Assembly (NCBI GenBank): GCA_050084515.1
Contig: CM114271.1
Coordinates: 11,284,001-11,348,000 of the forward strand
Length of the DNA stretch: 64,000 nucleotides
Origin: Blasia pusilla
Taxonomy: Eukaryota
Direction of reading: 5' to 3'
Positions 3,001 through 25,407 of the stretch are shown here, in pieces. The translations under genes were made by a program, and so were the position numbers. Positions within the stretch are counted from its first letter, which is position 1. Each line of letters begins with the position of its first letter. The notes under the pieces are model-generated. The model saw only the letters and a program-made list of their open reading frames with translations, searched no databases and was not told the origin of the DNA.

Positions 3001-4987
3001 ACCCGTCTGGTTCTGACAGGTTGCTTATTTCTTTGACTCCTGGGTTATTTTCGTTCCCTTGTAACATTGCCGTCGTTGCAGGGATTGAACGTTCATGAAA
3101 ATGCCCTCTGCCCCAACACAAGTGGAGCAGAAAGTGTTCATTCCTCCTGGAGGTCGTCACAAGCATGCCAACGAATTTCACTTGTGGAGGCATGCCAACA
3201 AGACCAGGCAAGAGCAATCTACTGATCAGAGCATCCCATATCTTTCTCACAAAAGGCATAACAAAAGGAAAAGGGCCGTCGATCTACGGAGCTCTTTGTT
3301 AGGGCGGTTGTGAGATCTGGTGATGAAAATTTGTATGTCGAGCCCTTCACCGGTGCGTAGCTGGAACTCCACTCGAGCAAGACGTACACATTGGTGGGGA
3401 TATTCGTGCAGGGTGTTTCAAGACGTCCCCCATAGATGGTGGTAGAGCAGTCCGAACGAGACTCGTGGAGACCAGATAAGTATCTTGACTTCAGGCAGGT
3501 AAAGAGGCAGCATCGAGGAACGATTTCGGTGATTGATTTGGATGAGGAAATTACACCGCCCGAGTATTCGGGGACCCCGGACCCGTCCCAAATCCGTGAT
3601 GGAGTTACTTCTCCAAAATCAGTGAATGTTTTATTTCAAAAGCCCTCCTTGGCTGGAAGTTCGCAACATCCTGTCACTGGGGTGGTTCAACAATATGGGA
3701 TTCCGGCAATGGAGGTGGATTGCAACCTAAAACGGTGGCATATATCTCGGAGCAACCCAGGATGTGAACCCACCTGCAGGGCAGGATCTGATGGCATTAG
3801 GAGAGCATGCGACACTTTCCTAAATAAGAACTGTACAAGGACTGGACGACCTCTGCCTGGGTTTTGGGGACTCAAAACCTTTGATCGTTTCACGAGGACC
3901 GGGGATCAATTGAAGTACTTCTTCTGCCCAAATGAATCTTGCGCTTTCCGGGAGTCTTATCCGGCTGCCATTGGAGCTCTCGGGAATACCCCCACGATTT
4001 GGCCCATCGGCGCAGGCACGAACTGCACTCAAGACGAAGTGGACAATCTTACAAGTGCCGGTTTCAGACTCGTAGACGGGGGAAGTTCGAAGCATGTTCG
4101 CATTACAGAGACCTTCGCATTTTGTATTCAACCCAAGATTGATGTCAACATGTACCCGGAGAAGGTGGATGATCTCAATCCATTATTTCTGTTTGAGTCT
4201 AGAAATGGGGTGAAGAGAAACAGAATGTGTAGGCCAACGTTGGAGAGAGCAAAACGAATTGCAGCAGCTCGGGAGGCAAAAATGGAGATCATCGCAACGA
4301 AAGATGTCATGAGTGGCAATGGAATAGGAAGGATGTATTGGGTCAGGAACAACACTTTAAATTCAAGTGTCACAGGGGTGTATGTGGTGCACATCTGTTG
4401 CTTTCCCACATGTTCATGTGATGACTTTGTCCAAAGAGAGACAAAAGGCAAAAGGTATTTCCCTTCTAAGCAGATGTACTATGTGTTGCTGGTAGTTTTA
4501 AGAGATTCAGAGGTAGGAGTAGGAATCCACCAACCAATTCTGTCCCTCAAATAAGTTCGAAATATTTTAAACAAACCACTTTGAGGATGCAAAATGAGGT
4601 GGTTGATTGTACTTTTATTTTTTTCTCAACCTTCACTGTGAGCTTGAACTCTATTCAGCCCGGGGAAAATGATAGATTTTTTCCAGACCTTGGATGGAAA
4701 AAGTGATTGGTTCCACACTTATGATTCCACTGATTTTTCAGTTTTGTAAATTTTGTGCAATTTGCAACTCGTCGGACTCACAGGGGTTGCCAAAATATGG
4801 AAGAGGAAAAAAAATTTGTGGGATTGTTTAATAAATGAACAAAAATGTGCAAAAAATTCACACAAAAAGTTTCCTCTCTTCAACCCAACGGAAACTCTCT
4901 TAAAAAAAAAGTATCTATATCGGTTGAAGGTAGTTTCCTCTCTCCTCTCTCCTCTCTTCCTCTCTTCCTCTCCTCTTACCGCACCTC
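1..4987 (+). mobile_element. Mutator-like (MULE) DNA transposon copy E1, transposase arm; runs off the window on the left, right terminus ...ACCGCACCTC at 4987
   Basis: Contains the transposase pseudogene and palindrome clusters. The CT-rich subterminal tract and terminus are shared with copy E2 (8668-8677 ACCGCTCCTC). An 11-bp target sequence follows at 4988-4998. Confidence 0.8.
606..4584 (+). pseudogene. MULE-type DDE transposase with GCM/WRKY-like Zn finger and C-terminal SWIM finger; two exons, frameshifts and stops
   Basis: Zn finger: RQCVGALECRSPAC...RCPHCQASPFC...GSHTHP. Catalytic candidates: GFD (~2085), FMADNAQ (~2280), DAFHWQQS (CxxH-like, ~2370). GT-AG intron 2619-3081 is followed by NTSGAESVHSSW (third acidic residue). 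SWIM finger: CSCDDF...FP(C/S)K(H/Q)MYY. Confidence 0.8.
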
Positions 4988-5251
4988 TCAGGGGCGAGTA
5001 TCAGGGACGTCTGGCAGAGTGGCAGGAACATTCTCTGCCTTGAGGGAAGGCATGAATTTTTTGACCTTTGCAAAGAGGCAAAGGCATATTACAATAGGCT
5101 AGTTGGGGCGTACAACTCTCCTCCGAAGCCGACAACTTCGGTTCCAGACCCACCATTGGTAGTGACACCATCGTCACTTCCCACGATTTCAAAAATCGGG
5201 ACTGCAAATCCGACAGTAATTCGGGAGGAGCTCTCGGACGATGACGAGTGA
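4988..5251 (+). pseudogene. Inverted C-terminal fragment of the beta-class amino-methyltransferase cargo gene
   Basis: Translates SGASIRDVWQSGRNILCLEGRHEFFDLCKEAK...DDDE*, resembling the GSGTT..A...GR..IG.E....Y segment of N6_N4 MTases. It joins in frame to the minus-strand part ending at 8678-8688. Confidence 0.75.
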
Positions 5252-5289
5252 GTTCAAAGAACTCAAGGATCCAACTTAACTACAGCGTT

Positions 5290-6404
5290 TTGGAGTAGGG
5301 ATTTATTTGATGACGAGGCAGAAGAATTCATAGAATCGATCAAATGTATGGTTCTGAGCTTCCTTTGGATGTAATAAAGGACACGATTTTTTCAAACCAT
5401 GATGGTGTTTGTAAAATTTTGTTGAATATCTTTTTTGGTCTTGACGATTGTGATCGTCTATGTTTTCTGACACTTCATAATGCAACCCGTCGGATTGCCA
5501 CGGTTGCAACTTTTCACTTTTTGACCACTGCACCATTCTAACCACTTCCAGGCAACCTGTCGGATTCCGACACGTTGGCTCCATGAGTGATCGGACTCTT
5601 TCCCTGTTAGTCCAACTTTACAGGCATTCTGGCGGGCTTCTTCACTTTGGCATCTTCCCCTAGTTTCATCAAACAAGTCTTAGGCTTCCTCTCTTCTCTA
5701 AGACGTGTTGGATTCCTACTACCTGGCTGAGGACATGATGGTGGCTCCAAGGACGGAGCACATATTGATACTGGATGGGTATCACCTTGCAGAGCGTACA
5801 AGATTTACTGCCAAAGAAGGCGGTGGGACTCAAATAAGGTTACATGGAACCGTTATGGTGTACGTAGGGGGGTGCCAAGGCTCTCGAATTCGCCAACATT
5901 TTCGATCCCCGTCTACAATCGGCCAGAGGAGCTACTTGTATCCCAGGACATTCCTTTTGTACAGGAACCTAGGAGAGTTAGGAGTAAATTTGTAGATGAC
6001 GAGGCTGAAGAAATCATAGATTAGATCAAATGTACATTTGTGAGCTTCCTTTGGATGTAATAAAGGACAAGATTTTTTCAAACGATAATGGTGTTTGTAA
6101 AAGTTTGTTGAATATTTTTTTTGGACTTGTCGATTGTGTTCGTCTAGCTACTTAGAATGTTTATTTTGCAACCCGTCGGATTCCGACATATTGCAACTTT
6201 TCACTTTTTCACCACTGCAACTTTTTAACCATTTACAAGCAAGCTGTCGGATTTCGACAGGTTGGCTGCTTGAGTGATCGGACTCTTTCCCTGTGAGACC
6301 AACTTTTGAGGCATTGTGGCGGGCTTCTTCACTTTTGGCTAGTATTGTCGAACCAGTTGTAGGCTTCTTTTCTTCTCTAAGACGTGTTGGATTCCTACTA
6401 CCTG
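5290..6404 (+). repeat. Imperfect ~420-bp direct duplication (about 5290-5725 and 5980-6404) around a unique ~255-bp segment
   Basis: Both copies run from GATGACGAGGC.GAAGAA.TCATAGA to GACGTGTTGGATTCCTACTACCTG. Confidence 0.85.
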
Positions 6405-7079
6405 TCGGATTGCCATTTTGGATTCCCAACCGGTTGGATTTTTGTGGGTGCAGGGTGGAATGGAATCACTTCTCAAAATCTTTCCTTTGTTATGTTGAGC
6501 TTGCTTGCAAGGGATGCAAGCCATTTGATTCGGACGAGTTGCAAGAGTTGCAACCTGTAAAATTCCGACAGGTTGGGAGGGGTGCAGCTTCTCGGTTTCT
6601 CAGATTTAGGATCTGAATAAACGGACATCAGTTCCTCTTTACTCCAGACAGCTAACAATCTTTTGGTTCAATTATCGTCTTCTGTGTTCACATTTCACAA
6701 AGTTGGTCTTTATTTGAACCTTTCATTGAGATGAGATTGCTACTTCTGGTCTAATTATTTGCCAATGATCCTCCAACAAAAAAAACCTTTGGGCACAACT
6801 TACTGTAGACTGAGACAGGCAATGTGAAGAAACTTAGGCTCATATGGAGAGTGATGGAAAATTTTTTTAGTGGTCTTATGATGTCTACGTGTTTTTCGCC
6901 CCAGGAAAAAGGAGGTTTCTTTAGGCCCAAATGTGGACCACTACCTACTCTCTTCTAAAGATTTCATGAATTTGAAAGCAAACAAAAATTTCAAATATGT
7001 CAAAAAGTTTTGAAGGCGGCGGCGTTTCAATAGCCTTCAAATATGAGAGGAGGCAGATTTGGCCCTTTTTTTCTAACGA

Positions 7080-7142
7080 GAGACTCTCCTCTCTTCCTCT
7101 CTTCCTCTGCTCTCTTCCTCTCTCCTGCCAGAATACCAACCC
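7080..7142. mobile_element. Probable second (cargo-side) terminus of the MULE element, now inverted
   Basis: CT-rich tract like those at 4935-4978 and 8625-8667, followed by an abrupt junction into the middle of the SWIM exon of copy E2. Confidence 0.5.
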
Positions 7143-8677
7143 CCAGATAAGTATCTTGGCTTCAGGCAGGTGAAGAGGCAGCATCGAGGAACGAACCCGA
7201 TGATTGATTTGGATGAAGAGATAACGCCGCCAAGGTATTCGGGGACCCTGGATTGCTCCAAAATACGTGCTTGAATAACTTCTCCAAAATCAGTGAATGT
7301 TTTATTTCAAAAGCCCTCCGTTGTTGGAAGTTCGCAACATCCGGTCGCTGGGATGGTTCAACAATATGGGATTCCGGTCATTGAGGTGGATTGCAACCTC
7401 AAAAGGTGGCATATATCTCAGAGCAACCCTCAACGTGGACCCACTTGCAGGGCAAATCTGATGGCATTAGGAGAGCATGCACCACTTTCCTAAATTAGAA
7501 GTGTACAAGAACTAGACGACCACTCCCTAGATTTTGGGGACTCAAAACCTTTGATCGTTTCACGAGGACCGAGGATCAATTGAAGTACTTCTTCTACCCA
7601 AATGAATCCTACGCTTTCTAAAAGTCTTATCCGGCTGCCATTGGAGCTTCGGGGAATACCCCCACGATTTGGCCCAACGCCGCAAGTACGAATTGCACTC
7701 ACGACGAAGTGGACAATCTTACAAGTGCTGGTTTCATACTCGTAGACAGAGGAAGTTCGGAGCATGTTCGCATTATAGAGACCTTTGCATTTCATATTCA
7801 ACCCAAGAGTGATGTCAACATGTATCCGGAGAAGGTGGATGATCTCAATTCACTATTTTTGTTTGAGTCTAGAAATGGGATAAAGAGAAACAGGATGTGT
7901 AGGCCAACGGTGGCAAGAGCAAAGCGAATCGCATCAGCTCGGGAGGCAAACATGGAAATCATTGCCACAAAAGATGTCCAGAGTGGCAATGGAATAAGAA
8001 GGATGTATTGGGTCACATTAACACTGTTCATTTAAGTGTCACAGGGGTGTATGTGGTGCATATCTGTTGCTTTCCCACATGTTCCTGTGATGACTTTTTC
8101 CAAAGAGAGACAAGTGGGAAAAGGTATTTCCCTTGTAAGCACATGTACTATGTGTTGCTTGTAGTTATAAGAGAGTCGGAGGTAGGAGTAGGAATCCACC
8201 AACCAATTCTGTCCCTCAAAGAAGTGCAAAGTATTTTAAACAAACCACTTTGAGGATGCAAAATGAGGTCTTAGATTGTACTTTCATTTTCCAGAACCTT
8301 CACTTAGAGCTTGAACTCTATTCAGCCCAGGGCAAATGATAGATTTTTTCTAGACCTTGGATGGAAGAAGTGATTTGTTCCACATTTATGATTCCAATGA
8401 TTTTTCAGATTTTTAAATTTTGTGCAAATTGCAACCAGTCGGATTCAAAGGGGTTGCCAAAATATGGAAGAGGAAAAAAAGATCAGTAGGAGTGCCTAAT
8501 CAGTGAAAACAAAAGTGCAAAAAAATTCACCAAAAAGTTTCCCCTCTTCAACCCAACAGAAACTCACTTCAAATCACAAGAAACTCACTTCAAAAAAAAG
8601 TCTCTCTTTGGGTTGAAGGTAGTTTCCTCTCTCCTCTCTCCTCTCTTCCTCACTTCCTCTCTTCTTTACCGCTCCTC
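7143..8677 (+). mobile_element. MULE copy E2: 5'-truncated SWIM exon plus right terminus
   Basis: Collinear with 3472-4987. The SWIM motif CSCDDFFQRETSGKRYFPCKHMYY is intact at 8008-8253; the copy is frameshifted. Confidence 0.9.
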
Positions 8678-11600
8678 CTCGCCCCTGATAGGGCCACTAA
8701 GTCAAAGACCAAGTCACCTGGCCTCGAGCAAAGCTCCATGAGTGTTTGCATCAAGGCAGGTGACTTCTCCCTTCCTTCAAGTAAGGGGATCCCTTGGGGG
8801 AATTGTAGAGACTATCTAAGCTGTACCCATCACAGCATGGATCCACTGGATCCGGGATCTGGAACGCCTGGAAGTTGTGCTCGGGCCTTACAAAGCAGTA
8901 AAAAAATGAGTGGTCCATGTGTGAACAAGCAAGTGGAAAATAATGTCAACAAAAAGAAAAAGCTAGTAGACCGCTAGTCTACTCTCAATATAGTGACATA
9001 ATGTGCAACCCGTCGGGATCCGACGGGTTGCTCATTTGGCTAGGCAGAGGAGCAACCTGTCGAAGTCCGACTGGTTGCTTTTCATCCCGTCCTACTAGTC
9101 CATAATGATTACCAACCCGTCCAAACTTGGCCTACAGGCCCTGACAGAACAGCAACATGTCGGAGTCCCACGGGTTGTTTTTCAACTCTAAGTGGATTCT
9201 TTGGCTATGAGCAACCAGTCAGAAGCTGACAAGCTGCTCATTTTGTCGGACAGAACCTCCACTTGTCAAAGTCCGATGGTTGGCTTACAATTGAATACAA
9301 TTCTTCAGAGTTGAGAGTTTCTTAATATGAGAGCAACACGTCGCTTTCAGACGGGTTGCATCACTCCAAAAACATGTGGAAAAGCAATGCTACTTGCAGC
9401 CCGTCGAGTTTTGACGCGTTGCAATCAATGGAGACTTGTTGGTGAATTTGCAACTCGTCGGTTTCAGACGGATTGCAACATCGCTGACACAAGTGCAAAG
9501 GATCTCAGGAAAGTTTCTAAGGTGAATTTGCAAGCTGTTGGGATCTGACGGGTTGCATGCAGAGATGGAACCCGTCGGAGTCTGACGGGTTGAATTTCTG
9601 TACAAACTCAATTGGTTGAAAAAGAGCACTTACCCGGACTTGAGTCATCACCGATATGAGTGGATTACTCATTTTTAATGACCCATGATTGCGCCATCCT
9701 CCACTTCAGCGACCTCTTCACGCACTGAAGGTTGAAGAGCTCATCTTCGCTCCCTCCCGTGAGGACCAAGAAACAATCCTTGCCACTCAGATTCGCGTCG
9801 GCAAAAGAAAACAACAGCGCGATCTGGTCATACGAAAGCAGGACATTCCAGTCTAGGACAGTGTGTGACGGATTATTGTCCCACAAGCGAATCCCAAAAG
9901 GCAAATCCGCAATGAGGAGGTCCACCGCCACCTCCTCAACAACCCCATGCACCGTCTAGGGGGCGTGCCCGTTTCGAAGGAGTTTTCGTCCCAGCACGGT
10001 CAATTTCTCGATGGCAGGTGTCGACTCTTGAGAACTGAAACTGTGCAGCTCATCGACAAGATGAGTCAAGTGAAGAAGGACATTTGTCTTGGTGGTAGTT
10101 TCCCTATGCCTGCCCAAGAATGATGGAGTGTATTCCACATCCTTATCTCCTCCCTCGGACTAACCAGACGCCTCCCGCTTTCACTTCTCCTGAGTCTGCT
10201 ATCCGCTTGTTGGAGTCTCCATTACCTTAGACTCCACATGAGTTTTCTTGGACGAGGACCTGGTCCAGCCCTCTTGCCCCGCTTGCCCAGACGATTCCGC
10301 CTCTCACCTTGAAGACTCAGCCTCTTTTCTCGAAGAGTCGACTTCGGAATTCCTCGATCCCCTTGCCTTGGATTTCAAACCCGCTATGGATTTTTCTTTG
10401 GCGGTGATGACCTTTGCCACCAACTCCGCTATCTTGAGGGCTTGCTCTTCCGCATCTCCTTTGAAAAAATTGTTAGGCTTCACGAAGTTCGGAATGTCGT
10501 CCCTACCTGCGACCAGTGCATGATAGACCACACGTAGATTTTTGTCCGTAATGTCCTCTGAGTGGTTGAAGTCCAACCAGATTGGACAATTGATTACCTC
10601 CTAATCGGACATGCCCTATCCCATCTCCATGTCATTTATGGAGAATCCCTCTCCATCAAGCGGAGAAGCCCACAATTTGCAGGCTGCCGGAATTTTTTGC
10701 CTAGTACCTGCATTCATACAATTGATGAGGTACCTGTACACCATCCGCTCGGCAGCTCTTTGTTGAGATGACTCGACCCCTTGGTCCTGAAGATCTCGCT
10801 TCTTCTTTGCAAAATCCCATTTTCTGGCGTCTATTTCCTCATCCAGGTCTGCCTGAGGGAGGATGTGATTCTTGAACATCATCTTGAATCATGGGTTTTT
10901 CGTCAGCTTCTCTCTAATGTCATCAAGCCATAGTTCAAAATCTTCTACAGCCTCTAGGTTTGCTTCTTCTGGAACTGGCTGAATCTTCTTCAGCTCTGCT
11001 TGTAGACCCACGATCATGGACTTCCCGAGAAGGCGCAATGCGTCCCAGAATGACCATTCCCGTAGCCAATGGGAGATCACTAGATCTGAAACTCCCAACG
11101 GGTGGTGTGCCGCCCACTTTTGGGCCTCAGTGCCCTCGAGACTGATTTTCATCAATCGGATATCCCAGACATCGCAAACCTGTGCACGCGGTCCAGAGAC
11201 ACTTTCTCTCCAATCTGACCCTGTGGATCTTCGTCTCTCTTCCGCACGCGCTTGATTATCGCCTTGAGCTCCTTGTAAAACTCCGGGCCAAGTTCGGGGT
11301 TGAGGACTGCAATATAACGCTGCATCTTGCTTGCAATGTACTTTGTAGTTGTAGATACGGCATCCTGAATAAACTTTGCACATTCTGATGCGGACACGTT
11401 CTCCCTTTGCTCCAGTTCCAACGTAGCACTATTCTTGGCGGCCTGGATCTTGGACCAACATAGGATTGTGACGGTTGCATCTTGGGAAATGAAGGTATTT
11501 TCCCATGTCTTCTTTTTTATTTGAGCTCCCTTTTCCAGCATTTCATTCACCAGATCCTGGCCCATGAATCCCTTGTACTCTTCCGGGTGCATCGTAAGCA

Positions 11601-13945
11601 CCTTCTTGACCGTGTTGCAATCTTGGATCCAGTGGTGGGTGACGTTCCCCTTGGATAAAATCCTGCAAATCCAAACACAAGGTAAGAATACTGCAAGCTA
11701 TTGGGTTCTTGCAACCCGTCGGACTTTGACGGATCGCTATTTTGTCAACCTTTCGGGGTCCAAATTGTAGCATAGAGATACGTGTTGCAACCCGTCGGAC
11801 TCCGACGGGTTGCAATTCTATCAATCCATCGGGATCCAAATCATAGCACAGAGATAAGTGTTGCAACCCATTGTACTCCAACGGGTCGCAATTTTTTCAA
11901 CCCATGGGGGTCCAAATCGTAACACAGAGATAAATGTTGCAACCGGTCGGAGTCCGACGGGTCGCAACACTCGTCTTTGTGTTATATTTATTACAACACG
12001 CTTGAAATTTTTAGAGAGAATTGCAACCCATCGGAGTCCGACGGGTTGCACTTTGTGTTCGTGACTCTCAGGTCCAAGCGATCGGTTCCTCTTATTCCTT
12101 GGTTCCAACCCGTCGGACTCTGACGGGTTGTAGAATGACTTCCTTTCGGAGATAGGTTTCCGGATAAAAACTGACCATATCAACCTGTTAGAGTCCAACT
12201 GATTGCGCAATGGCCCTGTAAAGCTGGAATTGGATGCCTAAGAGCAAGGTGTGGGACTCCGACCACGTAGCTTGGGGGAAAATGCAACTTGTCGGAGTCC
12301 GACGAGTTGCTTCCGCCAAAAGTATCAAAAAAATAGCAGACAGTCCAACAACTCGTCAGACTTTGACGAGTTGCTTTTAGGCGTCCGATGATTTGTTACC
12401 CCTCATTGTGCAACTCGTCTAAGTCCGACGGATTGAAGAAAAAATAAATCATGCAGTCATTTTTCCACCCGTGGATGTTTAACTGGTTTCAGTATCCCGG
12501 ATTAATGTTGTGAGCTTGGCCACCAGGCAACCCGTCGGACTCCGACGGTTTGCTTGACTATGACCTTGATCACAAATAGGATGGTGGCAAGAGACTCAAA
12601 TCATTCTTGCCCATCTCTAAGCTTTCCAATTATGCAACCCGTCGGACTCCGACGGGTTGAAGCAATCAAACTTAAGGATGAGGAAACTTACGTATTCATC
12701 GCATGCATTGCCATTTCCACCCTTGCCATGTGATGAGGAAATGGATGGAGCACAACTGACTTCACACAAAAATGCGCCTCCAATGAATTTGGGTGCTCCT
12801 CTACAAACTGCGTCCACGCCATGTACATGTGGTTCCCATCCCAAATGAAGAAGTAGAGGTTCCGGATCTAGCTAAATTGGGTTCCTTCAATCGCTCTTCT
12901 GAAGTCCTGATCTCTCATCCTCCACAATGTATCCAATGCCTCCAAGTCCTCTTCTGTCACCAGAGCTTGGGTTCCATGTTCATTGTAAGGCTGAACATAG
13001 AACGGAGGGAAGCTGTCGACGTAGGATTTAGTCGCTGCTGACTGTTTGAGCTTTGCAATGTCCTCCTTCGACTAAATTTCACGCACATACTTCATTGTCC
13101 GCAATCGACAGAGTGGATTTCTTGGGGCCTTTTGGCCTTCCATTTGTGCCATCTGCTTAACAACCCGCCACAATGGGGACAAAGTCAATAAAATACTATG
13201 TTTTGCCAATGAATTGCATAATGAGCCTTCACATAACTTGAGTTTTTCTTACCCGCTCAAAGATTGGGTCGGTGTCCAAGCCCGCCAGCTGCTTTGGGAC
13301 AGGAGCTGGCAAGTCCACGGGAAACTCATCGATCCGATAAAGGTCGATTTCTTCCACCGGCCTCAAAGACGACAAAGACTCTTCTCTTGCTTCTTCAGAG
13401 ATGTCCACCATCTCCACACTTGTTGTCCTCGTGACCTCATCGTCCGTCACTTGAACTTCGGCCATTTCCTCAGCCAATTTTAGATTCATGGTATCCCAAG
13501 ACCTCATCGGAGATATTTCCTCCATCTCAACATTGTTTGTTGGATGGGCACGGATTTCTTCAATGGCAATTTCTTTTTCTCTTTGAGCTTTCCCCAATTC
13601 TGCTCTCCTGGCGGAGGCGTCAAGACGCTTCTTCTCGCGTTTCTCGTCCGCGACAATTTTCTTCAAGGCCTTTGATGCCTCAACCTCGGCGTTTTGCTTT
13701 GCAAGCTCCTTTAGAGCAACTTTTGCTAGAACTTCCTGCCTGTGCATATCTGCTTCCCTTTCCCGCTCCTCTATTTCTTGTTGCCTTATCTCATTCGCTG
13801 AATGAGGACTTGGAGATGGTGATGCAGGAGTCCTGATAGACTTGGGAGTGATGCTCCCTACCTTGGTTACTTGTGTTTCCTTTCTCGTCATGGTGCACGT
13901 TGGGTCAGTTCTTCCTCCTTGACAGTCTAATCTGCTCTTGTGCAC
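8678..13945 (-). pseudogene. Cargo gene: charged/coiled N-terminus, ParB/Srx-like domain and beta-class N4C/N6A DNA methyltransferase; at least 3 exons, decayed
   Basis: ParB-like: VREI*SKEDIAKLKQS...PPFYV...FFIWDGNHMYMAW (WDGNH at 12829-12843). GT-AG intron 12691-11663 splices in phase. Motif IV VDLLIADLPFG (DLPF at 9896-9907). Second intron 9633 to ~8887. Motifs X/I EKSPALMQTLMELCSRPGDLVFDL at ~8700-8775. Start codon uncertain. Confidence 0.75.
11785..11815. repeat. Perfect exemplar of the dispersed palindrome TTGCAACCCGTCGGA-N-TCCGACGGGTTGCAA
   Basis: 15-bp inverted arms with a 1-nt spacer. Degenerate copies cluster at 1-400, 2740-3030, 9000-9600, 11700-12660, 14300-15000 and 17790-18650. 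Confidence 0.95.
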
Positions 13946-14289
13946 AACAGATTCCTCAAAGCTTCGATGGAGTGCCTAAACGCAACTCACGAAGCGTTTC
14001 GTGATGAAGCGCCGTGACCCTTGAGCGGATGGGCTTGCCGAAATCGAACCTCAAAGTGTCGGGTGCTGGATCGTCGTAACCTTCCAACGAAGGGGTCAAT
14101 GTAATCGACTTTGGCAGCGGAAAGGTACCATCAGCTAGTGCCAGGAAGAGCACATAAAATCCGCGAAATGAAAAATGGAAATGAGCAAAATCTTAGCCTT
14201 TTATACTTTTCGAGCCGTTAAGCTGACCGTTGGGTCATTGGGTCGTATCGACGGCAACGTTGGCCGTTATGGAACTTTGCACATGGGAA

Positions 14290-15000
14290 CCCCGGAAACC
14301 CATCGGATACCGATGGGTTGCACACTTCCCTCATCTTGGGGATACAAGGCGAGGTACCCGGGCAACCTGTCCAAGACCGATGGGTTGCATGCTTCCCTCG
14401 TCTTTGGGTAACAAGGCGAGGTACCCGCGCCACGCGTCGGAGGCCAACTGGTTGCATGCTTCCCTCGTCTTGGGGTAACAAGGCAAGGTACCCAAGCAAC
14501 CTGTTTGAGACCGACGGGTTGCAAGCTTCCCTCATCCTCAGGTAACAAGGCGAAGTGCCCAAGCAACCCATCGAAGACCGACGGGTTGCACGTTTCTCTC
14601 GTCTTGGGATAACAAGGCGAGGTACCCGTGCAACCCGTCGGAGACCGATGGGTTGTACGCTTCCCTCATCTTGGGGTAACAAGGCAAGGTACCCGCGCAA
14701 TCCGTCGTAGACCGATGGGTTGTACGCTTCCCTCATCTTGGGGTAACAAGGCGAGGTACCCGTGCAACCCGTCGGAGACCGATGGGTTGTACGCTTCCCT
14801 CATCTTGGGGTAACAAGGTGAGATACCTGTGCAATTCCTCGGACACTGACGGGTTGCATGCTTCCCTTGTCTTGTGGTAACAAGGCGAGGAACCCAGGCA
14901 ACCGGTCTTAGACCAACGGGTTGCATGCTTCCCTTGTCCTTGGGTAACAAGGCGACAAAGCATAGTCCCGAGGCAACCCATTGACCTCCGACGGGTTACA
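14290..15000. repeat. Tandem array of ~10.5 units of 67 bp, each containing the palindrome
   Basis: The (A)ACAAGG anchor recurs at 14343, 14410, 14477, 14544, 14611, 14678, 14745, 14812, 14879 and 14946, an exact 67-bp period. A degenerate homologue lies at 1-340. Confidence 0.95.
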
Positions 15001-15004
15001 AGGT

Positions 15005-17737
15005 CTACCCGCGGTTGGACACTTCCCACCATACGGCAAAAGTGCCCCGTATTATGGAGGCACATATTGGGTGATCCAACTTCATCTAGGATTTGGTGGT
15101 GGCACAACTTGGATTGCATAGCACCCTCCCCACTATTCGGGTTCATACCACCCTTCTTCTGTAATGGGATCTTCCTAGATCCAACGTAAATCCCTCTCAG
15201 TATGACATTCCTGGGCAGTATGCCGTTGGGTTCTGCAGGTACTGCACCAGATGTTGGGCCTCATCAGACCTGGTCGTCTTCTGGGATCCTTCTGGGCCGC
15301 CAGATGTACCTTCAATTCTGCCATTTGCTTACTTAGCTCTTCCATGGCCGACTTGTCGGCCTTCCTCACTGTCCCCCTCACTGGACTTTCCGACCGCTGG
15401 AGAAGGTGCTTTGTTGGTCGGGTTTTCCTTTGGTGCTTGGGAGAGTGGTGGCGCGTGCTTTTTCTTTTCCGTTTAGATTTTAAATCTTTCTCAGAGTCCG
15501 AGGACTCCGAAGTGTCCCCCATAGAGGATTCCGTGTCTGTGGAAGACGATTCGTCCTCCGACGAAGCACTAGTTTGCGACGAACCTCGTCGTTGGTGACG
15601 CCATCTTCATTTTTTACGGGACTTCTCTAAGGCCTCGTACGCCTCTGCGGAGCTACATGGGTAAATTCAAGCACAAAGTTGTCCACATCATCTCGCCGTT
15701 CCCCTGCAAAGGTGGGGTATCTTAGCAGCGTCTTCCTAGTATTGGCCATGGGGAATGGTCTGCTGCTGGGTCCCGGGCTTGATGCTCGGGAGGGAGGAGG
15801 TAGCGGTTCGGCTATAGTTGACTTGGTCGGCTCCATGTCCCCCGAGTCCTCAAAGGGGTCCCAGGTTGACTCTTCGTCCGACTGCGAACTAGCAGGGGAC
15901 GTAGTGGAGAGTTTGTTCCTCTCTCTCTCCTTGCTCTTGGGCTTCGTGCGTAGACGAAGACCGGGAGACAGCCCAGGCGGTCTCCAAGACGGGTGATCTT
16001 CTTGCTGCTTACTGCGTCGATCGGCTCGCTGATCTCACGAAGAGGGCCGGGAGCCTTCCATGAGTCCCTTCTGGGATTCAGGAGTTTGCTTCCGCACCCA
16101 CGGTCGCAACAAGGTAGGGGTCCATGGAGGGAAATTAAATGTTTCTAATTCCTAAGCCTACAGGAGTGTGCCCGGTGCTCTTAATCTTCATGCCAGGTTT
16201 TCCTCCCATAAATAAAAGTACCGGGTCATCACCAAGAACAACTGAAGTTCATGGGCGGAGCACCGTTCGGTGACTGGTTTATTGACAATACTAATTAATT
16301 GTTCTATCTTTTCTAGCACCAATGCAGCAAATCGGTTGTTATCTTCTTTCATCCATTGTCTGAGGGGGATAGCTAGAGATAGCAGATGGTCTTTAGTAAG
16401 AACTGACTGGTTGGGTCTTCTAGGAGACGAGGCTTCTTTCCCCGCTCCCAGATTCCCCATGTGTCTCTTTCCCTCTTCAGCAAAGCTTATGATCTCGGGC
16501 AGCGGCGCCAAAAAGTTTCTTTTTGTATGTAATGTACAAGAGTTTTTATTTTACAGTCGTTTTAATAAGTTCGATCCTTAAGAGGATCATTGTTTGATGA
16601 AAAGAGAGTTCGAAATTACAATTCTGTTGTAATAGTTGTATTTAAATGTGTATGAGTTCTATTCAATGTCATATCAATATCTGCTGATCTTTCTTAGTAC
16701 CAAAGGATCTTTTCTCGATTCTCTCTAGTGGAATTGATAGCAGGTTCATGTAGATTTTCCTCTTGACATCAAGAAACCTCACAGAGATCTCAACATGAAA
16801 GCTGGCTTCTCCTACTTTCGGAACTCAATCCGTCTCGGCACGCTACTCTCTGTCAAAAAGATTTCCTACAACTCAGGTTGATTATTTCATTGATGAGAAA
16901 GGTTTGCCTGATTCACTCTTCACTTTGTAGACCCAAAAAGAATACTCAAACATAAGCATCGCACATCAAAATGAATGAATAATTGCTTTACTATTCCATC
17001 AAGAATGAGAAAGCTTCAAAGTGTATACAAGCTTGAGAGGGTACTACTCCCTTGCTCAGACCATTCCTACAGCATAAGGATTTTGTAAGAGAATGATGAT
17101 TATGGCTTCTATCTTGTTTCTTAAATACTCGCTGGAGTAGAAGTGATCCAAAGATTCAAAGCATTCTTGATGAAGCGAGTGTCTCTTCACCATTTCTAAC
17201 TACCTAGATCTATGGTTCTCTTAGCTTTTCCTACGATCCCTGTGAATCCGCAGAACAAAACTGTCCCAACTACCAATTTGATACAAAGGGTCGCGCCTCT
17301 TCCTAGTCTAACAGTTCTAACGTGCGTCGCTTGAAATCACAGTCGTTCTTAGCTTCGCTTCGCTGGACTTCATGAGGACGAAGCACTTCATGCTTTGTTC
17401 TTATTTCAGATGCTTCGTGCTTCGCACTTCATACAAGAGCGAAGTACTTCTTTCTCCTCTTCTTCATGCTTCGGTATGCTTCGTTATAGAGCGAAGCACT
17501 TTGTAGACAGAGCTTTGTTGAGCTTCGTTGAGCTTCATTATTGCATTTTCCTCTCCACTAAGGCAAATCCTTGATCTTCCATCTCTCTACCTTGTCCCAA
17601 GAGCTTCGTGATTCACTTTAATCTTACTCATTCTTCCTCATAATAATAAATAATCAAAATCAAAATCATAATGTACAAGAGTCTTCTTTGAATAAAAAGA
17701 TACATTTCTTCAAAAGTACAAAATTGTGGGTATCACA
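15005..17737 (-). mobile_element. Truncated Ty3/gypsy-type element: 5' LTR (~16524-17737), PBS and decayed gag
   Basis: The LTR begins TGTGATACCC on the minus strand and matches 53054-54263. PBS TGGCGCCGCTGCC at 16498-16510 (-) is Athila/Tat-like. Zn knuckle CSTCRTQRHTAQEC. Inserted in the MULE transposase intron (the right flank matches 2668). Confidence 0.8.
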
Positions 17738-20700
17738 AAAGTTGTAGCTCAAGTTGAGAAGCGTGTGCACTATAGGGATTTCAAACTGCAGAAAACCAAG
17801 CAACCCGTCGGAAACCGACAGGTTGCATCAAGAATGTTTGTGCAACCCGTTGGAACTCGACTGGTTGCATGAGTGTCACACCCGTCCGAGCGCGACATCA
17901 TGCACGAGGAATGTTTGTGCAACACGTCGGAACCCGATTGGTTGCATGAGTGTGCAACCCTTTCGAATCCCAATGAGTTGCAAGTTGCATGTATACAAGG
18001 CCTGCAAATAGTTTGATGCGGATGGGTTGCAAGCCCCAAGGCTGCGAGTTAACTTGGTCTGCAACCCGTCGGATTCCGACAAGTTGTGTCTGTCTGCAAC
18101 TTGTCGGATTCCGACTAGTTGCCTCTGTATGCGACTCATCACATTCAGACAGGTTGTTGTTGTCTCCAAGTCCTCGCATCCAGACACGTTGCATCAGTGC
18201 AAGTTAATTTGAACCCGTAAAATTCCAATAGTTGCAAAGCTACCTATGTGGACACTTCTTGCAAGCCAACAAAATCCGACAGGTTGCACAAGGATTTTTT
18301 AGACCGGACCGGCCTGCTTCTCACAACCCGTCCGATTTTGATGGGTTGCAGTAGTAGGTTCCCGAGTGCTAGGTTGCAATAAAAGGTTATTGGGACATTC
18401 CAAGGATGTCTCCAACTTGCAACCCGTTTCAAGTCGGAGGCTGGAAAATCCATGTGCAACCCATCGGATTCCGATGACTTCCAGTTGGATCTTCCAGCCC
18501 GGAGTGGCCAAAGTTACTTGCAACCCGTCTGAACCCCACAGGTTGCACTAGGTGGTTCTTGGATGTTGCAACACGTCGGAAACCGACCGGTCACAGAGTC
18601 ATTCATGGGATGCCTCCGACTTGCAACCCATCTTGTTCCGACAAGTTGCTTTTTTCTTTGCTCATAGAGTTATTTTCGTTCCCTTCTCATATTTCTGTCG
18701 TTGCATGGATTGAACATTCATGAAAATGCCCTCTGCCCCAACATAAGTGGAGCAAAAAGTGTTCATTCCTCCTAGAGGTCATCACAAGCATGCCAAAGAA
18801 TTTCATTTGTGGAGGCATGCCAACAAGATCAGGCAAGAGCAATTATCGCGCCCCTACTCTCCTTGAACGTCAATCTTTAGTGTTGCGGAAGCGTGCGTTC
18901 AGTAGGTCACGAACTCATCGCCGATCTGCACCCAAACACGCACTCTCGTTAGTCGGGTTTGGCCAACCAGCGTTCCAACCCACCAAGTCCTCAACTCGGC
19001 GTCTCATTAAGCTCAACCTTCCTTAGTTCCTAGCTCCCAACACATGGCAAGTCCTTCAAGACTTGGAACAGACTTCCTGGTTAGTCCAGGGATCTGAAAC
19101 AGCACTTGCACGCCTAGCAATCCCAGCTATTCAACGGTCCTCGTGTGAGTTCCGAACCGAGACCCAAGTAGTTGAGTCGCGGCGTGAAATCCAAGAGGGA
19201 TGCCTAAAATCGCCTCAATGGACTTGGTGCAGGTTTTCCAACCCAACGCCCAAACTCGCGTTCCGTTCCATGCCCTTGAGCTGCCCCGCGGCGCCCAAAG
19301 TGGGGTTTGGGTTCCAAGCACTCTCGGAGACCTGCCCCCTTACTAGTACTTTTGGGGTTCTCCAATAACCCCTCCCCTTTGGGAAAAGAGGTTCGGGCCC
19401 TTCATTGTGGCCCTCAACCTGACTCCACTTACAGTTGTTTTCGGGTTGTATCTCGGCCGCTGCTTATGCGTTTGCAACAATCTTTGGTGCGTTTGGACCG
19501 GCTCTCCATAAGCTTTCCAACGCACCCTTATTTGCTCCAAAACCATCTTGGCGCTAAAAGTTATGGCCATAAATACAGTCGGAAACTCTCAAACGTAAGT
19601 GGCGTTCCAAATCCGGATCTTTCCTTTGGCAACCCCCTTCCTAGACTCGACTTCTTTCAAGTCTCATTCCGCGTTTGGTCCAGGTTTCTGAGTCACAACC
19701 ATAACACCTGAAACGCGATTCCTTGCTCGCGTCTCGTCTCTTGTCTCCTCTTTGAGACACCTCCAACGCGCAAACCATCTTAGCGTGAGTCCGCTAATGT
19801 TCTGATGTTCCGCTTGGTACTTGTTTGGTCATGAGGGTCGCGACAGCAATGGTACAGTCTGCAGCATCCCATATCTTCCTCAAAAAAGGCATAACAAAAG
19901 GAAAGGGGCCTTCAATTTATGAGCTCTATGTCAGGGCGGCTGTGAGATCTGGTGATGAGAAACTCTATGTGGAAGCCTTCAATCAGTGCGTAGCAGGAAC
20001 TCCTCTCGAGCAACATGTCCACATTGGTGGGGATATTTGTGGGCGTGTTTCAAGACGTCCCATACAGATGGTGGTAGAGCAGTCCAAGCGAGACTCGTGG
20101 AGACCAAATTAGTATCTTGACTTGAGGCAAGTGAAGAGGCAACATCGAGGAACGAACCCAATGATTGATTTGGATGAAGAAATTACGCCCTGGTATTCGG
20201 AGACCCGGGATTGCTCCTAAATCTGAGATGCAGTAACTTCTCCAAAATCACTGAATGTTTTTTTTTCAAAAGCCCTTCGTTGCTGGAAGTTCGCAACATC
20301 CGGTCGCTGGGGTAGTTCAACAGTATGGGATTCCGGTCATTGAAGTGGATTGCAACCTCAAAAGGTGGCATATATCTCCCAACAACTTTGAACGTGGACC
20401 CACTTGCAGGGCAAGATCTGATGGCATTAGGAGAGCATGCGGCACTTTCCTAAATAAGAAATGTACAAGGACTAGACGACCACTCCCTAGATTTTGGGGA
20501 CTCAAAACCTTTGATCGTTTCATGAGGACCGAGGATCAATTGAAGTACTTCTTCTGCCCAAATGAATCCTGCGCTTTCCAAAAGTCTTATCCGGCTGCCA
20601 TGGGAGCTCCAGAGAATACCCCCACGATTTGGCCCATTGCCGCAGGTACGAATTGCACTCAGGACAAAATGGATAATCTTACAAGTGTCCACTTGAGTCT

Positions 20701-21618
20701 CGTAGACGGAGGAAGTTCGGAGCATGTTCGCATTACAAAGACCTTCGCATTTCGTATTCAATCCAAGATTGATGTCAACATGTATCCGGAGAAGGTGGAT
20801 GATCTCAATCCACTATTTTTGTTTGAGTCTAGAAATGGGATAAAGAGAAAGAGGATGTGTAGGCCAACGGTGGAGAGAGCAAAGCGAATTGCATCAGCTC
20901 GGGAGGCAAACATGGAAATCATCACCACAAAAGATGTCCAGAATGGCAATGGAATAGGAAAGATGTATTGGGTCATATTAACATTGTAAATTCAAGTGTC
21001 ACAGGGGTGTATGTGGTGCACATCTGTTGCTTTCCCACATGTTCCTGTGATGACTTTTTCCAAAGAGAGACAAGTGGGAAAAGGTATTTCCCTTGTAAGC
21101 TTATGTACTATGTGCTGCTTGTAGTTTTAAGAGAGTCAGAGGTAGGAGTAGGAATCCACCAACCAATTCTGTCCCTCAAAGAAGTGCGAAGTATTTTAAA
21201 CAAACCACTTTGAGGATGCAAAATGAGGTCTTACATTGTACTTTCATTTTCCAGAACCTTCACTTTGAGTTTGAACTCTATTCAGCCCCAGGCAAATGAT
21301 AGATTTTTTCCAGAACTTGGATGGAAAAAGTGATTTGTTCCACACTTATGATTCCAATGATTTTTCAGATTTTTAAATTTTGTGCAAATTGCAATCCGTC
21401 GGATTCAGAGGGGGTTTCCAAAATGTGGAAGAGGAAGAGAGGAGAGAGGAGAGAGGAAACTACCTTCAACCCAAAGAGATACTTTTTTTTAAGAGAGTTT
21501 CCTATGATTTGAAGAGAGTTTCCGTTGGATTGAAGAGAGGATACTTTTTATGTCAATTTTTTTGCACTTTTATTCTCAGTGCGTAGGCACTCCTGCACAA
21601 AATTTTGCCCTCTTCCAC
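17738..21618 (+). mobile_element. MULE copy E3: transposase intron (palindrome-expanded), second exon with SWIM finger, rearranged subterminal region
   Basis: Collinear with 2668-4970. Splice acceptor mutated (GTTGCAT at ~18700). Interrupted by a solo LTR. Confidence 0.9.
18844..19845. mobile_element. Solo LTR (~1.0 kb) with 5-bp target site duplication GCAAT
   Basis: Ends TATCGCG...CGCGACA (TG..CA with one change). GCAAT at 18839-18843 and 19846-19850. The MULE exon continues on both sides. Confidence 0.9.
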
Positions 21619-21619
21619 T

Positions 21620-24600
21620 CAACTATAAACCAGTATCACACACAATCACAAGGTGGTGATGGTGGAAACCATTGGGGTTGAGATCAGTAGTAGAGGATCC
21701 CTGGATCTTGCAATTACTATGGGATAAAGGATCACTATGCAAAGTTTTGATTCAAGAAGAAGGCAGATATGAGAACAAGAGCCTTACAACAACAAAATTA
21801 TGTGGAGCAACAACACGAAGAGCAGTAACAAAAACAACATCATTCACAAACGAAGCATCTCTTGATCATGACTCATCATATGGAAGCAATGGTCAAGAAA
21901 GACTCGACAGCAGATTGGTACATTGATTCTAGAGCATCAAATCACATGACCTCACAAGCTAAATGGTTTAGTAGTTTGGAGCCGGTGAAAGATCCTGCAA
22001 TTGTGCTCATAGGAGATGACACTCAACATCATATCACGTAAACCGGTAAAGTTCCAATAGCATCATATGGTCTTTGTGCTCTTGGAAATTTTCTTTATAT
22101 TCCTACCATTGCAAGAAACCTGATCTTTGTAGTACATATAGTAGAACACGGTTATCAAATGAAGTTTAACGTAGATGGTTGTTTTATTGAAATAATGGAT
22201 GACCAGACTACGATAGCCAAAGGAACTAGATCTGGCAGAATGTTCAAATTAGATATTTTTATACCAAAGATTCAAACAGCAATGTATGGTCAAACCGGCC
22301 AACAAGTCACAGATCTAAATATGTGGCATAAAAGAATTGGACATATGAATCTTCAAAGATAACAGAATCTTTCATCATCTAATATAGTAATAGGACTCCC
22401 TAAATTAGCAAGTCCTACTACATTAGAGGTATGTCTTGCTTGCCAATTTGGAAAACAAGCTAGATTTCCTTTTCCAAAGTAAGATAGAAGAGCATCTACG
22501 ATATTGGAGTTGATCCACAGTGATGTGTGGACAACATCACAACATAGCCTTAGTGGTTGCCAGTACTTTGTTTCATTTATTGATGACTTCTCTAGATATA
22601 TATGGATATACTTTCTGAAAGCCAAGTCAGAGGTATTCTCTGTGTTCCAAACATCCAGAGTTCTAGTAGAGAAGCAAATTGGAGAACACATTCTGAAATT
22701 GCGTTGTGATGGAGGAGGAGAGTATCTTTCAACAGAGTTTGATGACTATTTACGTAAGAATGGCATTCAACGTCAAGTGACTTGCCATTACACTCCACAA
22801 CAAAATGGAGTGGCTGAGAGGAAGAATCGACATATTGCTGAAGCGGCACGAGCTATGTTGAATGAGAAGAACATGCCTAAGGTCTATTGGGCAGAGGCTG
22901 TAGCATGTGCAGTTTTCTTAATCAACTGAACTCCAACAGCAGGAGTTCATGATAAAACTCCATTCGAAGTCTTCACAAAAAGTAAACCTGATTTTTCCTT
23001 CTTGAAAGTATTTGGCTGTATTTGTTACGCTCATGTTCCTTTTGAGAGAAGCGTTGTTAGATCCCAAGTCTGAAAGATGTTAGATCCCAAGTCTGAAAGA
23101 TGTATCTTCATTGGCTATGCTGATGGAACTAAGGGATATAAGTGCTACATTCCATCCTCTAGGCAACTTATTATTAGTCGAGATGTTGTCTTTGATGAGC
23201 TAAAGTCATGGTATGCTCCATATGTGCCTATTCCACCTTTAAACTTGTATATTGAGGGGGAGAATATGATTGTAAACCAACACACATTGTCTTCAACTTC
23301 CCCAAGTATTAGTGCAGGATTAGGAGAGGTCCTAGATTCATGAGTTAAATCTGTAAGTCCATGGATGGGAAGAGTACGTATTCAGTCTGTTGACACTAGT
23401 CAGAGCTTGAGTCAGGTATTACAAGCATCTACCTCTGAACAACAACTTCGTAGATCAAGTAGAGTTATACATCCAGTTCATAGAATCATAAATGAAGGTT
23501 TCCTTTCGACACATCATGCATATATAATGATTATCCTTCAAGAACAAGAGCCAAATTATTTTGAAGAAGTTGCAAGTAAAGTCGAATGGATTGAAGCTAT
23601 GGAGGAAGAGCTTGCTGCATTAAGACATCAACAAACATGACAGCTGGTTGATATACCTTCCGGTAAGGAAGCTATTGGTTGCAAATGGGTTTACAAAATC
23701 AAGCGCAATCAAGATGGTGCAATTAAGAGATACAAAGTGAGATTGGTGGCTAAGGGCTATGCACAACAATATGGTATCGATTATGAGGAAACATTTAGCC
23801 CTGTTGCAAATATGGCGACTACGAGAACAGTGGTTGCAGTTGCAGTAAGTAAGAAATTGAGATTACATCACATGAACGTCAAGAATGCTTTCTTGAATGG
23901 AGATCTATACGATGAGGTATATATATGACTCAGCCATCTGGATACGAGCATCCAAAGTTTCCATTTCGCGTATGCAGGTTGAAGAAAGCTCTATATGGGC
24001 TCAAACAAGCTCCAAGAGTTTGGTATGGCAAGATTACATACGTTCTACAAGAGTTGGGTTTTAGGGTATGTGATTCTGACTCCTCGTTATATGTCTTGAG
24101 AGGAAAAGATCATACGGTTCTCATTGTGTTGTATGTTGACAATCTCCTGATTACTGGGAGTATTGAAGAAATGGTATAACAAGTCAAGCTTAAGTTACAA
24201 GTAAAATTTGATATGAAGGCCTTGGGAGAACTCAAGTACTTCCTTCGTATTGAGTTTATCAAGGTTGGAGAAAGCAGGTGGTTACTACAACGACAATATG
24301 CTATTCATATGCTTTCAAAATATGGTATGACAGCTTGTAAGTCAATCTCTACACCGTTGGACCAAAGCGTGAAGCTAAGAGTGGATGAAGGAGAGATGCT
24401 TGCACATTCTAATATGTACAGGCGCGTGGTTGGAAGTTTAATCTATCTAACTATAACCAGACTAAATTTGAGTTATGGTGTTGGCCTAGTGAGCCAGTTT
24501 ATGCAAGCACCTCGGAAACCTTACCTTGATGTTGTGAGGAGGATTATGCAGTATGTGAAATTCTCTATTCAATTCGGGCTTCAATTTGAACCTTCTCCGA

Positions 24601-25407
24601 GTTCTCAATTATAAGGATTCACAAATGCTGATTGGGCAAGAAGCCTGTCTGATCAACACTCCACATCTGGTTATTCATTTACTTTGGGAAGCGAAGCTAT
24701 AAGTTGGGCTTCAAAGAACCAACCTACAATTGCTTTATCTTCAATAGAGGTTGAGTACAGAGGAGTAACCAATGCCGCATGTGAGGCGGTGTAGTTTCAT
24801 CAATTACTTGTTGAGATTGGTGTTAGTAACTTAAGACCTAGTGTAATATATGCAGACAATATTAGTAGCATCAAGCTTGCTAATAACCTTGTGTTCATGC
24901 TCGTACAAAGCATTTTGAGGTGCACTATCATTTTATCAGAGAGAAAGTACTTGCAAGAGAAATAGATCTTGTGTATATAGGTACAGATCAGCAAATTGCT
25001 GACATCTTTACAAAGGCATTGTCGAGAGATAAGTTTGAGATGTTTAGAAATTATTTAGGCGTTAGAGATATCGATATGAGCTTAAGGAGAAGTATTGAAG
25101 ATTGAGTTATAGTCAAGCTCATGAGACACCTGAACTGCTACATTTGGTACTCACACGAAGTAGGGAAGCTTAATGTTGGTTAGTCAGTTAAGCGCGATTA
25201 TCTTAACTATGGTTAGTTAATCACAGTTAGTCTAACTCGAGATTAAGGTTAGTGTTAGAGTTGCTTGTACATACCCTATATAATTGAGAAGGGGAACAGC
25301 CTCTATTCATTCTCTCATTGCAAATTTCGTTCTCCATGGTGGTGTGTGTGTGTGAGAGCCGTTTTCCACCAGTTATGCTTGTTTAGCAGTTTTCCATAAA
25401 TCTAACG
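21620..25407 (+). mobile_element. Ty1/copia retrotransposon relic, 5' truncated, with 3' LTR at about 25093-25407
   Basis: Domain order: protease WYIDSRASNHMT, WHKRIGH, integrase (LIHSDVW, LRCDGGGEY, PQQNGVAERKN), RT (RLVAKGY, LYGLKQAPR, LYVDNL), RNase H (QQIADIFTKAL), then a purine tract at ~25084. Many stops. Confidence 0.95.

Follow-up and report, generated by a model that had tools for sequence, protein, structure and literature searches.

Positions 1-21617 of a 64-kb window of the Blasia pusilla genome (GenBank assembly GCA_050084515.1, contig CM114271.1, positions 11,284,001 to 11,348,000; the window is the whole stretch of DNA that was analysed, 64,000 nucleotides) are best explained, as a whole, as a nest of three old and decayed copies (A, B, and C) of one large cut-and-paste DNA transposon family with Mutator-like character. 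Between copies B and C lies a methyltransferase (MTase)-like gene, which is read here as the second gene of the same transposon unit. Our confidence in this explanation, taken as a whole, is about evenly balanced. The material consisted of the window sequence, public protein libraries, and published papers. The block holds the gene with its introns and its partial homology to MTases, a target duplication with an inversion, the three copies, and a palindrome with a distinctive distribution, and a homologue of the gene is annotated in a liverwort. From these observations we infer that the gene is part of the element, and what its protein does.

The split MTase-like gene and its probable ancestry

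Judged from sequence, the MTase-like gene is real. The basis is a homologue in Riccia sorocarpa, a set of conserved blocks, and three GT-AG introns with compatible phases; GT-AG introns had also been reported in the original prediction. The gene would have at least five exons, and the predicted protein would be roughly a thousand residues long. Its parts, in reading order, are the following.

13253-13891, minus: first coding exon, beginning with the ATG at 13891; free of stop codons and, by eye, charged and rich in Glu/Lys
13072-13252, minus: intron, GTAAGA...TAG, 181 nt, phase 0
12692-13071, minus: exon with FIWDGNH (12849-12829); one in-frame TAG at 12870-12868
11663-12691, minus: intron, GTAAGT...CAG, 1029 nt, 2+1 nt; almost wholly made of palindrome-bearing 76-bp units
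9669-11662, minus: long exon with the Riccia-conserved region (WSFW, NCPIWLDF) and a motif IV-like DLLIADLPFG at 9922-9893
8771-9668, minus: intron, GTAATC...AAG, 898 nt, 2+1 nt; six full palindromes
8678-8770, minus: exon carrying motif X and the first part of motif I (EKSPALM...RPGDLVFDLVALSGA); EKSPALM at 8769-8749, RPGDLVFDLVALSGA at 8724-8680
4988-5251, plus: last exon, displaced and inverted; end of motif I, motif II-like GRNILCLE at 5021-5044, stop at 5249-5251

The copy of the gene in the window is dead, as the original prediction had said. The long exon has eight in-frame stops in 494 codons, a one-base frameshift lies near 11150, a further stop stands at 12870-12868, and the reading frame is broken at motif I. 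Four of the eight stops fall within 10307-10160, a stretch that is lacking in the Riccia protein, starts with GTGAGA, and ends with TAG. This stretch may be an intron, but its phases could not be made to fit. Among the remaining stops, two stand where the Riccia protein has Q and W. All motifs had been placed on the minus strand at 13945-8678. FIWDGNH, DLLIADLPFG, and EKSPALM are indeed found there, whereas GRNILCLE and the end of the gene lie on the plus strand at 4988-5251.

When the long exon was read through with X at its stops, its sole match in 1.84 billion representative proteins was the hypothetical protein KAL3687003.1 of the liverwort Riccia sorocarpa (488 residues; E 8.7e-18, 29% identity). 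In the alignment of the two, the blocks HHP, WSFW, NCPIW, and DLLxxDLPxxxRLW are invariant. KAL3687003.1 as a query retrieved itself only among proteins of near length and nothing among longer ones, and a Pfam search with it gave no match. A scan of metagenomes with the MTase-like gene gave no match either, and scans of viral and prokaryote genomes were likewise empty.

Profile comparison indicates that the C-terminal part of the protein is likely homologous to the beta-class amino-methyltransferases. Pfam was run piecewise on the separate open reading frames (ORFs) of the gene. The 53-residue ORF of the motif X exon had N6_N4_Mtase (PF01555) as its sole match (E 0.034), at 14.5 bits against a gathering score of 26.7, a cut-off that no piece of the gene reaches; the other exons gave no Pfam match. 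The same ORF had three PHROG matches, all of them to DNA methyltransferases (E 0.012, 0.012, and 0.077), and none in NCBIfam. We also built a profile from 12 beta-class MTases (E. coli YhdJ and 11 phage enzymes; all five that were checked match PF01555). With this profile the motif X ORF ranked first among 1344 window ORFs with 11.1 bits, compared with 8.4 for the runner-up and 2.5 for the best of 200 shuffles.

For hhalign, the motif X exon and the last exon were joined by coordinates across the break in the gene. Against the alignment of the 12 MTases, the joined sequence gave a probability of 90.8% and a P of 1.2e-6 over 57 columns covering motifs X, I, and II, ungapped across the junction. 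The motif IV exon as a single ORF gave a P of 0.0057, the best among 150 background ORFs (the next had 0.0088), with DLLIADLPFG aligned weakly at the DPPY block. This exon falls at template columns 25-88 and the X-I-II part at 216-272, which is the permuted order of the beta class. The beta-class assignment of the original prediction thus holds for the similarity over motifs X, I, and II and for the order of IV before X and I, but it stays below the Pfam cut-off and is weak at motif IV. The C-terminal part would descend from a bacterial or phage beta-class (N6_N4) amino-methyltransferase.

The consensus catalytic tetrad of amino-methyltransferases is (D/N/S)-P-P-(Y/F/W). At this position the window has DLPF (9893-9922) and KAL3687003.1 has DLPT. 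The glycine loop of motif I (F-x-G-S-G) is also altered: the window, in this decayed copy, reads A-L-S-G-A-S where the template consensus is G-S-G-T-T. Only about 96 residues lie between motifs IV and X. Because of the DLPF/DLPT tetrad and the LSGAS loop, we consider the protein likelier to be a non-catalytic DNA- or chromatin-binding accessory protein (a pseudo-enzyme) than an active writer of N4-methylcytosine (4mC) or N6-methyladenine (6mA). The earlier proposal of a DNA-marking enzyme is weakened by the same tetrads and by the loss of the first glycine of motif I.

A ParB/Srx-like segment had been proposed for the exon with FIWDGNH, and no profile supports it. Neither this exon nor its read-through matched Pfam, PHROG, or NCBIfam. 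In hhalign against eight ParB-like proteins from E. coli and phage records, FFIWDGNHMYMAW pairs with the IiDGFHR block over 13 columns only (P 0.07-0.09, probability below 1%), and the arginine position of the DGxHR-type motif is M in the window. In an hmmsearch with the profile of the eight proteins, the region was not among the eight best-scoring sequences listed, and an earlier test with two ParB-like proteins did not support the assignment either. A search of nine distinct phage records did not turn up ParB_N, and a plasmid search for ParB-methyltransferase fusions returned no ParB-labelled match. The ParB assignment remains a resemblance of short sequence motifs.

Three transposon copies and their palindromes

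One sequence family occurs in the block in three direct copies: A at about 800-4987, B at 7084-8677, and C at 17738-21440 with a flipped end segment at 21431-21617. The copies and the arrays that accompany them are the following.

1-350: palindrome units resembling an array, located upstream of copy A and truncated by the window start; 65-75% identity to the 67-bp array at 14286-14931; four full hairpins at 114-328
800-4554, plus: copy A, fullest transposase-like gene; palindrome-filled intron 2667-3050; intact 372-codon 3' ORF 3436-4554
4807-4987, plus: end segment X of copy A; terminus ...TTACCGCACCTC at 4987
7084-8677, plus: copy B, 3' part of the transposase gene and end segment X; terminus CTTTACCGCTCCTC at 8664-8677
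14219-15054: 67-bp tandem array with one palindrome per unit, between two divergent genes (span of the repeat family)
17738-21440, plus: copy C, 3' part of the transposase gene; palindrome intron 17738-18650; nested 1-kb repeat 18844-19862
21431-21617, minus: copy C's end segment X, in the opposite orientation to that of copies A and B and bounded by short inverted repeats GGAAGAGG / CCTCTTCC; terminus missing

The homology of copy A with copy B is unbroken to the terminus (3472-4987 versus 7143-8677, 87.1%). Over the 1.33 kb common to the copies, pairwise identity is 0.890 for A-B, 0.886 for A-C, and 0.920 for B-C. B and C have 90 derived sites in common and the other pairings have 51 and 44, so B and C are the closest pair. 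The 3' ORF of this part is intact in copy A only. Its dN/dS is 0.38 for A-B, 0.37 for A-C, and 0.56 for B-C, and the values of 0.37-0.38 between A and either of the others indicate that the ORF was under purifying selection while the family diversified.

The upstream exons of copy A (about 800-2660) have a cysteine/histidine finger and D...D / D-x-x-H patterns as in Mutator-like transposases, by eye only. The DDE-like stretch among them has no counterpart in copy C except two 25-residue tblastx fragments; beyond the array, copy C retains only the 3' part of the transposase (17738-21213). The sole Pfam match of an ORF in copy B (7903-8250) is SWIM, with an E of 0.14 and 12.2 bits against a cut-off of 19.6. 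The ligands of this C-terminal finger read CxC...CxH in copy B and CxC...CxL in copy C, and two of them are lost in copy A. A metagenome scan with a transposase ORF gave no match. Mutator-like elements (MULEs) typically make target-site duplications of about 9-11 bp, and the 11-bp duplication described below falls within this range. The assignment as Mutator-like is plausible; it rests on this duplication, the termini, the zinc finger, and motifs recognised by eye, and no profile supports it. This also holds for the MULE transposase named in the original prediction, which no profile search recognised as such.

Two details concern the ends of the copies. The X segment at 21431-21617 is flipped relative to 8465-8651 between 8-bp inverted repeats (GGAAGAGG / CCTCTTCC), and a 60-nt core of it reaches 98% complementarity, compared with about 92% similarity of the copies elsewhere, which hints at a later recombination or conversion event. 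At the inner boundary of the truncated copy B (7084-7135), the sequence starts CT-rich and is similar to the likewise CT-rich terminal part of X, read in the same direction (25 nt, 96%); it may be a trace of how the truncation arose.

A 27-bp palindrome, GCAACCCGTCGG-N3-CCGACGGGTTGC, is present in 33 full forms, every one with a 3-nt loop. All 33 fall within 114-18546, where they occupy the two arrays and introns of the MTase-like and the transposase-like gene. This agrees with the original prediction, in which the same palindrome filled the introns of both genes. They are distributed as follows.

Array upstream of copy A: 4 full hairpins
Copy A intron: 5
Two large introns of the MTase-like gene: 6 and 7
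67-bp array: 6
Copy C intron: 5

A 12-mer search allowing up to two mismatches placed 98 of 100 matches in 1-22000 and two in the remaining 42 kb; when the whole window was shuffled five times, there were 2-5 matches. The repeats nested inside copy C contain no full hairpin. The palindrome introns of copies A and C are homologous and stand at matching places, and array units are also found upstream of copy A. Because the palindrome is restricted to the block and the A and C introns are homologous, it appears to have been inherited with the element and not scattered by separate insertions. The 67-bp array itself, already described in the original prediction, was recovered by Tandem Repeats Finder at 14297-14955 with 9.8 copies and 82% matches. 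It is a speculation that the palindrome serves as a binding site for a protein of the element. Where palindrome arms depart from the consensus, the change is mostly from CG to TG or CA. Such decay is the usual mark of 5-methylcytosine (5mC) deamination, and the palindrome block was probably CG-methylated for a long time.

The inversion of 4988-8677 and the reconstructed unit

The minus-strand frame of the MTase-like gene runs into the end of copy B at 8678 and resumes on the plus strand from 4988, directly past the end of copy A. A target-site duplication of 11 bp marks both junctions.

4988-4998, plus: target-site duplication, copy 1, TCAGGGGCGAG
8678-8688, minus: target-site duplication, copy 2, CTCGCCCCTGA on the plus strand; exact reverse complement of copy 1

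Each copy of the duplication adjoins a homologous terminus (...TTACCGCACCTC at 4987 and ...TTACCGCTCCTC at 8677), and in both cases the terminus is the transposase-side end of a direct copy. Ends of the same side at both junctions and an inverted duplication cannot be produced by a simple insertion into the gene, which is therefore ruled out. Replicative intramolecular transposition is ruled out as well, because its product would have inverted copies, with each of the two types of end represented once. The X segments at 8465-8651 and 21431-21617 were also considered as the true terminal inverted repeats of a 13-kb element; this was rejected because the target duplication marks the other, CT-rich end of X as the terminus.

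We infer that the gene was split by an alternative-transposition inversion of 4988-8677. The facing ends of the neighbouring copies A and B would jointly have attacked a target inside motif I of the gene, and this joint attack would have inverted 4988-8677 and left the 11-bp target duplication in inverted form. The nested repeats, the stops, and the frameshift would have come afterwards. What the window shows is one element within the inverted segment and another directly beyond it, and the duplications stand exactly at both termini. A further 14-mer in the first coding exon (13758-13771, CTTTCCCGCTCCTC) matches the element terminus with one mismatch and is probably a chance occurrence in a GA-rich coding stretch. 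The inverted segment also carries the former downstream flank of the gene:

5252-7083: former downstream flank, now inverted; 686-bp-period tandem duplication 5294-5730 / 5980-6409 (83% identity); palindrome half-sites; no match elsewhere within the window

When the inversion is undone, copy B is flipped and falls downstream of the gene, so that the gene, the array, and copy C lie between the outward-facing ends of B and C. The two copies then form inverted arms of 1.3-1.6 kb with 92% identity. The reconstructed unit measures 16.6 kb; once the 3.7 kb of nested repeats are subtracted, about 12.9 kb remain, in line with the roughly 13 kb given in the original prediction. Within it, the MTase-like gene stands head-to-head with transposase-related sequence across the 67-bp array, and the element-specific palindrome is common to both. 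The gene had been said to point away from a transposase across a central array. The head-to-head arrangement with transposase-related sequence is confirmed, but copy C keeps only the 3' part of a transposase there.

The 64-kb window as a whole is eukaryotic and is composed of transposons. Pfam recognised a copia-type integrase and RVT_2 at 22483-24611 and a gypsy-type RVT_1 and RNase H at 52096-54664. A search of 1-22000 against Rfam gave no match. A Helitron reading of the ORF at 27239-27913 was dropped when Pfam gave no match to it. Unrelated material is nested beside the 67-bp array:

15055-17737: unrelated sequence nested here; 15175-16550 (minus) resembles gag and has a CCHC knuckle, judged by eye only; a 1.2-kb repeat occupies 16526-17737

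The ORFs at 15175-16034 (minus) have a CX2CX4HX4C knuckle and a gag-like FAGE...D...F motif with no significant Pfam match, which suggests a retroelement gag fragment nested beside the array. The 1.2-kb repeat (16526-17737) recurs at 54261-53054 in the opposite orientation with 87% identity. It sits in copy C and also interrupts the gypsy-type reverse-transcriptase ORF; that ORF (54206-54667) and the ORF at 16246-16581 end in a common CNVQxFLxYSRFNKFDP tail. The repeat is probably a solo long terminal repeat or another small element. The insertion of about 1 kb in copy C (18844-19862), which copy A does not have, resembles over 18853-19840 two adjacent inverted copies at 32241-34113 with 72-74% identity.

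Rival readings and known systems

The evidence that the MTase-like gene and the transposase were co-resident in one element is suggestive, and we lean slightly towards it. The competing explanation is chance nesting. The gene would then be a host gene, a pseudogenised duplicate, or the remnant of another element, with family members inserted independently around and into it, and the intron palindromes would be small derivatives that hopped locally. We hold this to be unlikely, yet it is the strongest of the rivals. An element end is demonstrably inserted in an exon of the gene, and the sole homologue is one annotated Riccia gene without paralogues found in the searches, which would also fit a host gene. 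Against it, the block contains all 33 hairpins, and both the 42 kb of other transposons and the repeats nested in copy C are free of them; the palindrome-filled introns were inherited at matching places in A and C, so that the palindromes behave as part of the element; and outward-facing ends of the closest pair, B and C, flank the gene once the inversion is undone. Several further results weigh against a gene carried by a Mutator-like transposon. The linkage is seen at a single locus. There, the two genes are not enclosed by any pair of termini that has a target duplication, and the terminus of copy C is missing. If the arms had diverged only after insertion, a B-C dN/dS of about 1 would be expected; the observed 0.56 is lower, and it hints that B and C were once separate active lineages. 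The rest of the window consists of other transposons and is a poor sample of the genome-wide distribution of the palindrome. As for the transposase, the copy A ORFs had no Pfam match at E up to 1, Atlas cluster searches with two transposase ORFs were empty, and the 282-residue ORF of copy A had no homologue among longer proteins, the only ones searched.

The MTase side of the reading is open to two objections of its own. The resemblance could be a chance similarity of a short Rossmann-like stretch without any MTase kinship: every library match lies below its own threshold, only about 57 residues align well, and searches of the Protein Data Bank (PDB) and NCBIfam returned no MTase. In the same direction, the motif IV exon matched nothing in Pfam, PHROG, or NCBIfam, its hhalign comparison together with the Riccia sequence was not significant (P 0.026), and an AlphaFold2 model of the Riccia protein from a two-row alignment was unusable (pLDDT 32). 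However, three libraries agree on MTases and on nothing else, the hhalign P of the X-I-II part is 1.2e-6, and an independent alignment puts a second exon at the motif IV position, in the correct order, which makes a chance resemblance very unlikely. Conversely, intact copies could make a working N4-cytosine or N6-adenine DNA MTase that marks the element or counters silencing. Homology over motifs X, I, and II fits this proposal. So do the D and P of motif IV and the DLLxxDLPxxxRLW block, which are kept in the window and in Riccia and suggest constraint, and the CG-rich private palindrome could be the target. The tetrad has kept neither its first proline nor, in the DLPT of Riccia, its aromatic residue, and motif I is without its first glycine. 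Barring a hidden exon, a target-recognition domain would hardly fit into the stretch from IV to X. The CG-to-TG/CA decay of the palindrome variants reads as typical of 5mC-methylated DNA, and the window copy is dead. We regard an active self-marking enzyme as very unlikely, though slightly less so than an absence of kinship.

In its most complete form, our reading would be of a large Mutator-like family of the liverwort lineage that permanently carries an intron-bearing gene derived from a beta-class MTase. Hundreds of private 27-bp CG-rich palindromes would lie in its own introns and promoter array, and the protein, active or a sequence-specific binder, would recognise them to mark the element or shield it from host silencing. 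We regard this full version as improbable, if a shade less so than an active enzyme. A single dead copy cannot prove that the gene is transposon cargo, which it may be. Transposons of land plants carry anti-silencing genes or captured host genes, and in the open-access literature we found no report of a cut-and-paste DNA transposon with a resident gene derived from a beta-class amino-methyltransferase in plants. If the linkage is true, bacterial-type DNA-modification genes would have a new way of entering plant genomes and persisting there, which might bear on where the 4mC enzymes of liverworts came from. The element would also offer a case, open to testing, of a transposon that brings its own DNA-recognition module together with cognate palindromes. 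If the linkage fails, the locus is still a clean natural case of an alternative-transposition inversion outside maize.

Mutator-like elements with a second gene include MuDR with mudrB and VANDAL21 with VANC. These are likewise large DNA transposons with a transposase gene and a second, element-specific gene. Here, in contrast, the transposase matches no MULE profile, and the gene that may be the accessory one is MTase-derived.

Compared with the bacterial and phage beta-class MTases (N6_N4_Mtase, e.g. E. coli YhdJ), the window gene has the same order of motif IV followed by X, I, and II, and a K-(S/P)-P...L...S-x-P-G-D-x-V-x-D...G-R-x-x-x-x-x-E stretch aligns over 57 columns. It differs in being eukaryotic with introns, in about 700 extra N-terminal residues of unassigned family, in DLPF for DPPY and LSGAS for GSGTT, and in a target-recognition region that is short or missing. 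Bacterial-type amino-methyltransferases are also found in eukaryotes as active host enzymes, according to the reports on Marchantia MpDN4MT1a/b (bioRxiv 10.1101/2021.02.12.428880) and rotifer N4CMT (PMC8885841). The only homologue of the window gene is likewise from a liverwort, but the window family has degenerate motifs and a transposon setting. DIRS1 retrotransposons carry an amino-methyltransferase-derived domain with substituted catalytic and substrate-binding residues, which was judged likely inactive by Iyer et al. 2016 (PMC4738411). That domain is also transposon-borne and degenerate. It belongs to a PCIF1-related group, is unpermuted, and is part of a retroelement polyprotein, whereas the gene in the window is separate and stands beside a DNA-transposase gene.

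The closest parallel to the inversion is the reversed-ends alternative transposition of maize Ac/Ds (Ac/fAc, PMC8225341). It too leaves one element inside and one just outside the inversion, with matching duplications at the termini. In the window both ends are transposase-proximal and not a 5'/3' pair, which counts against our reading of a linked unit. The target duplication here is 11 bp and not 8, the inverted segment is only 3.7 kb, and the event is an ancient one, read from the sequence it left behind.

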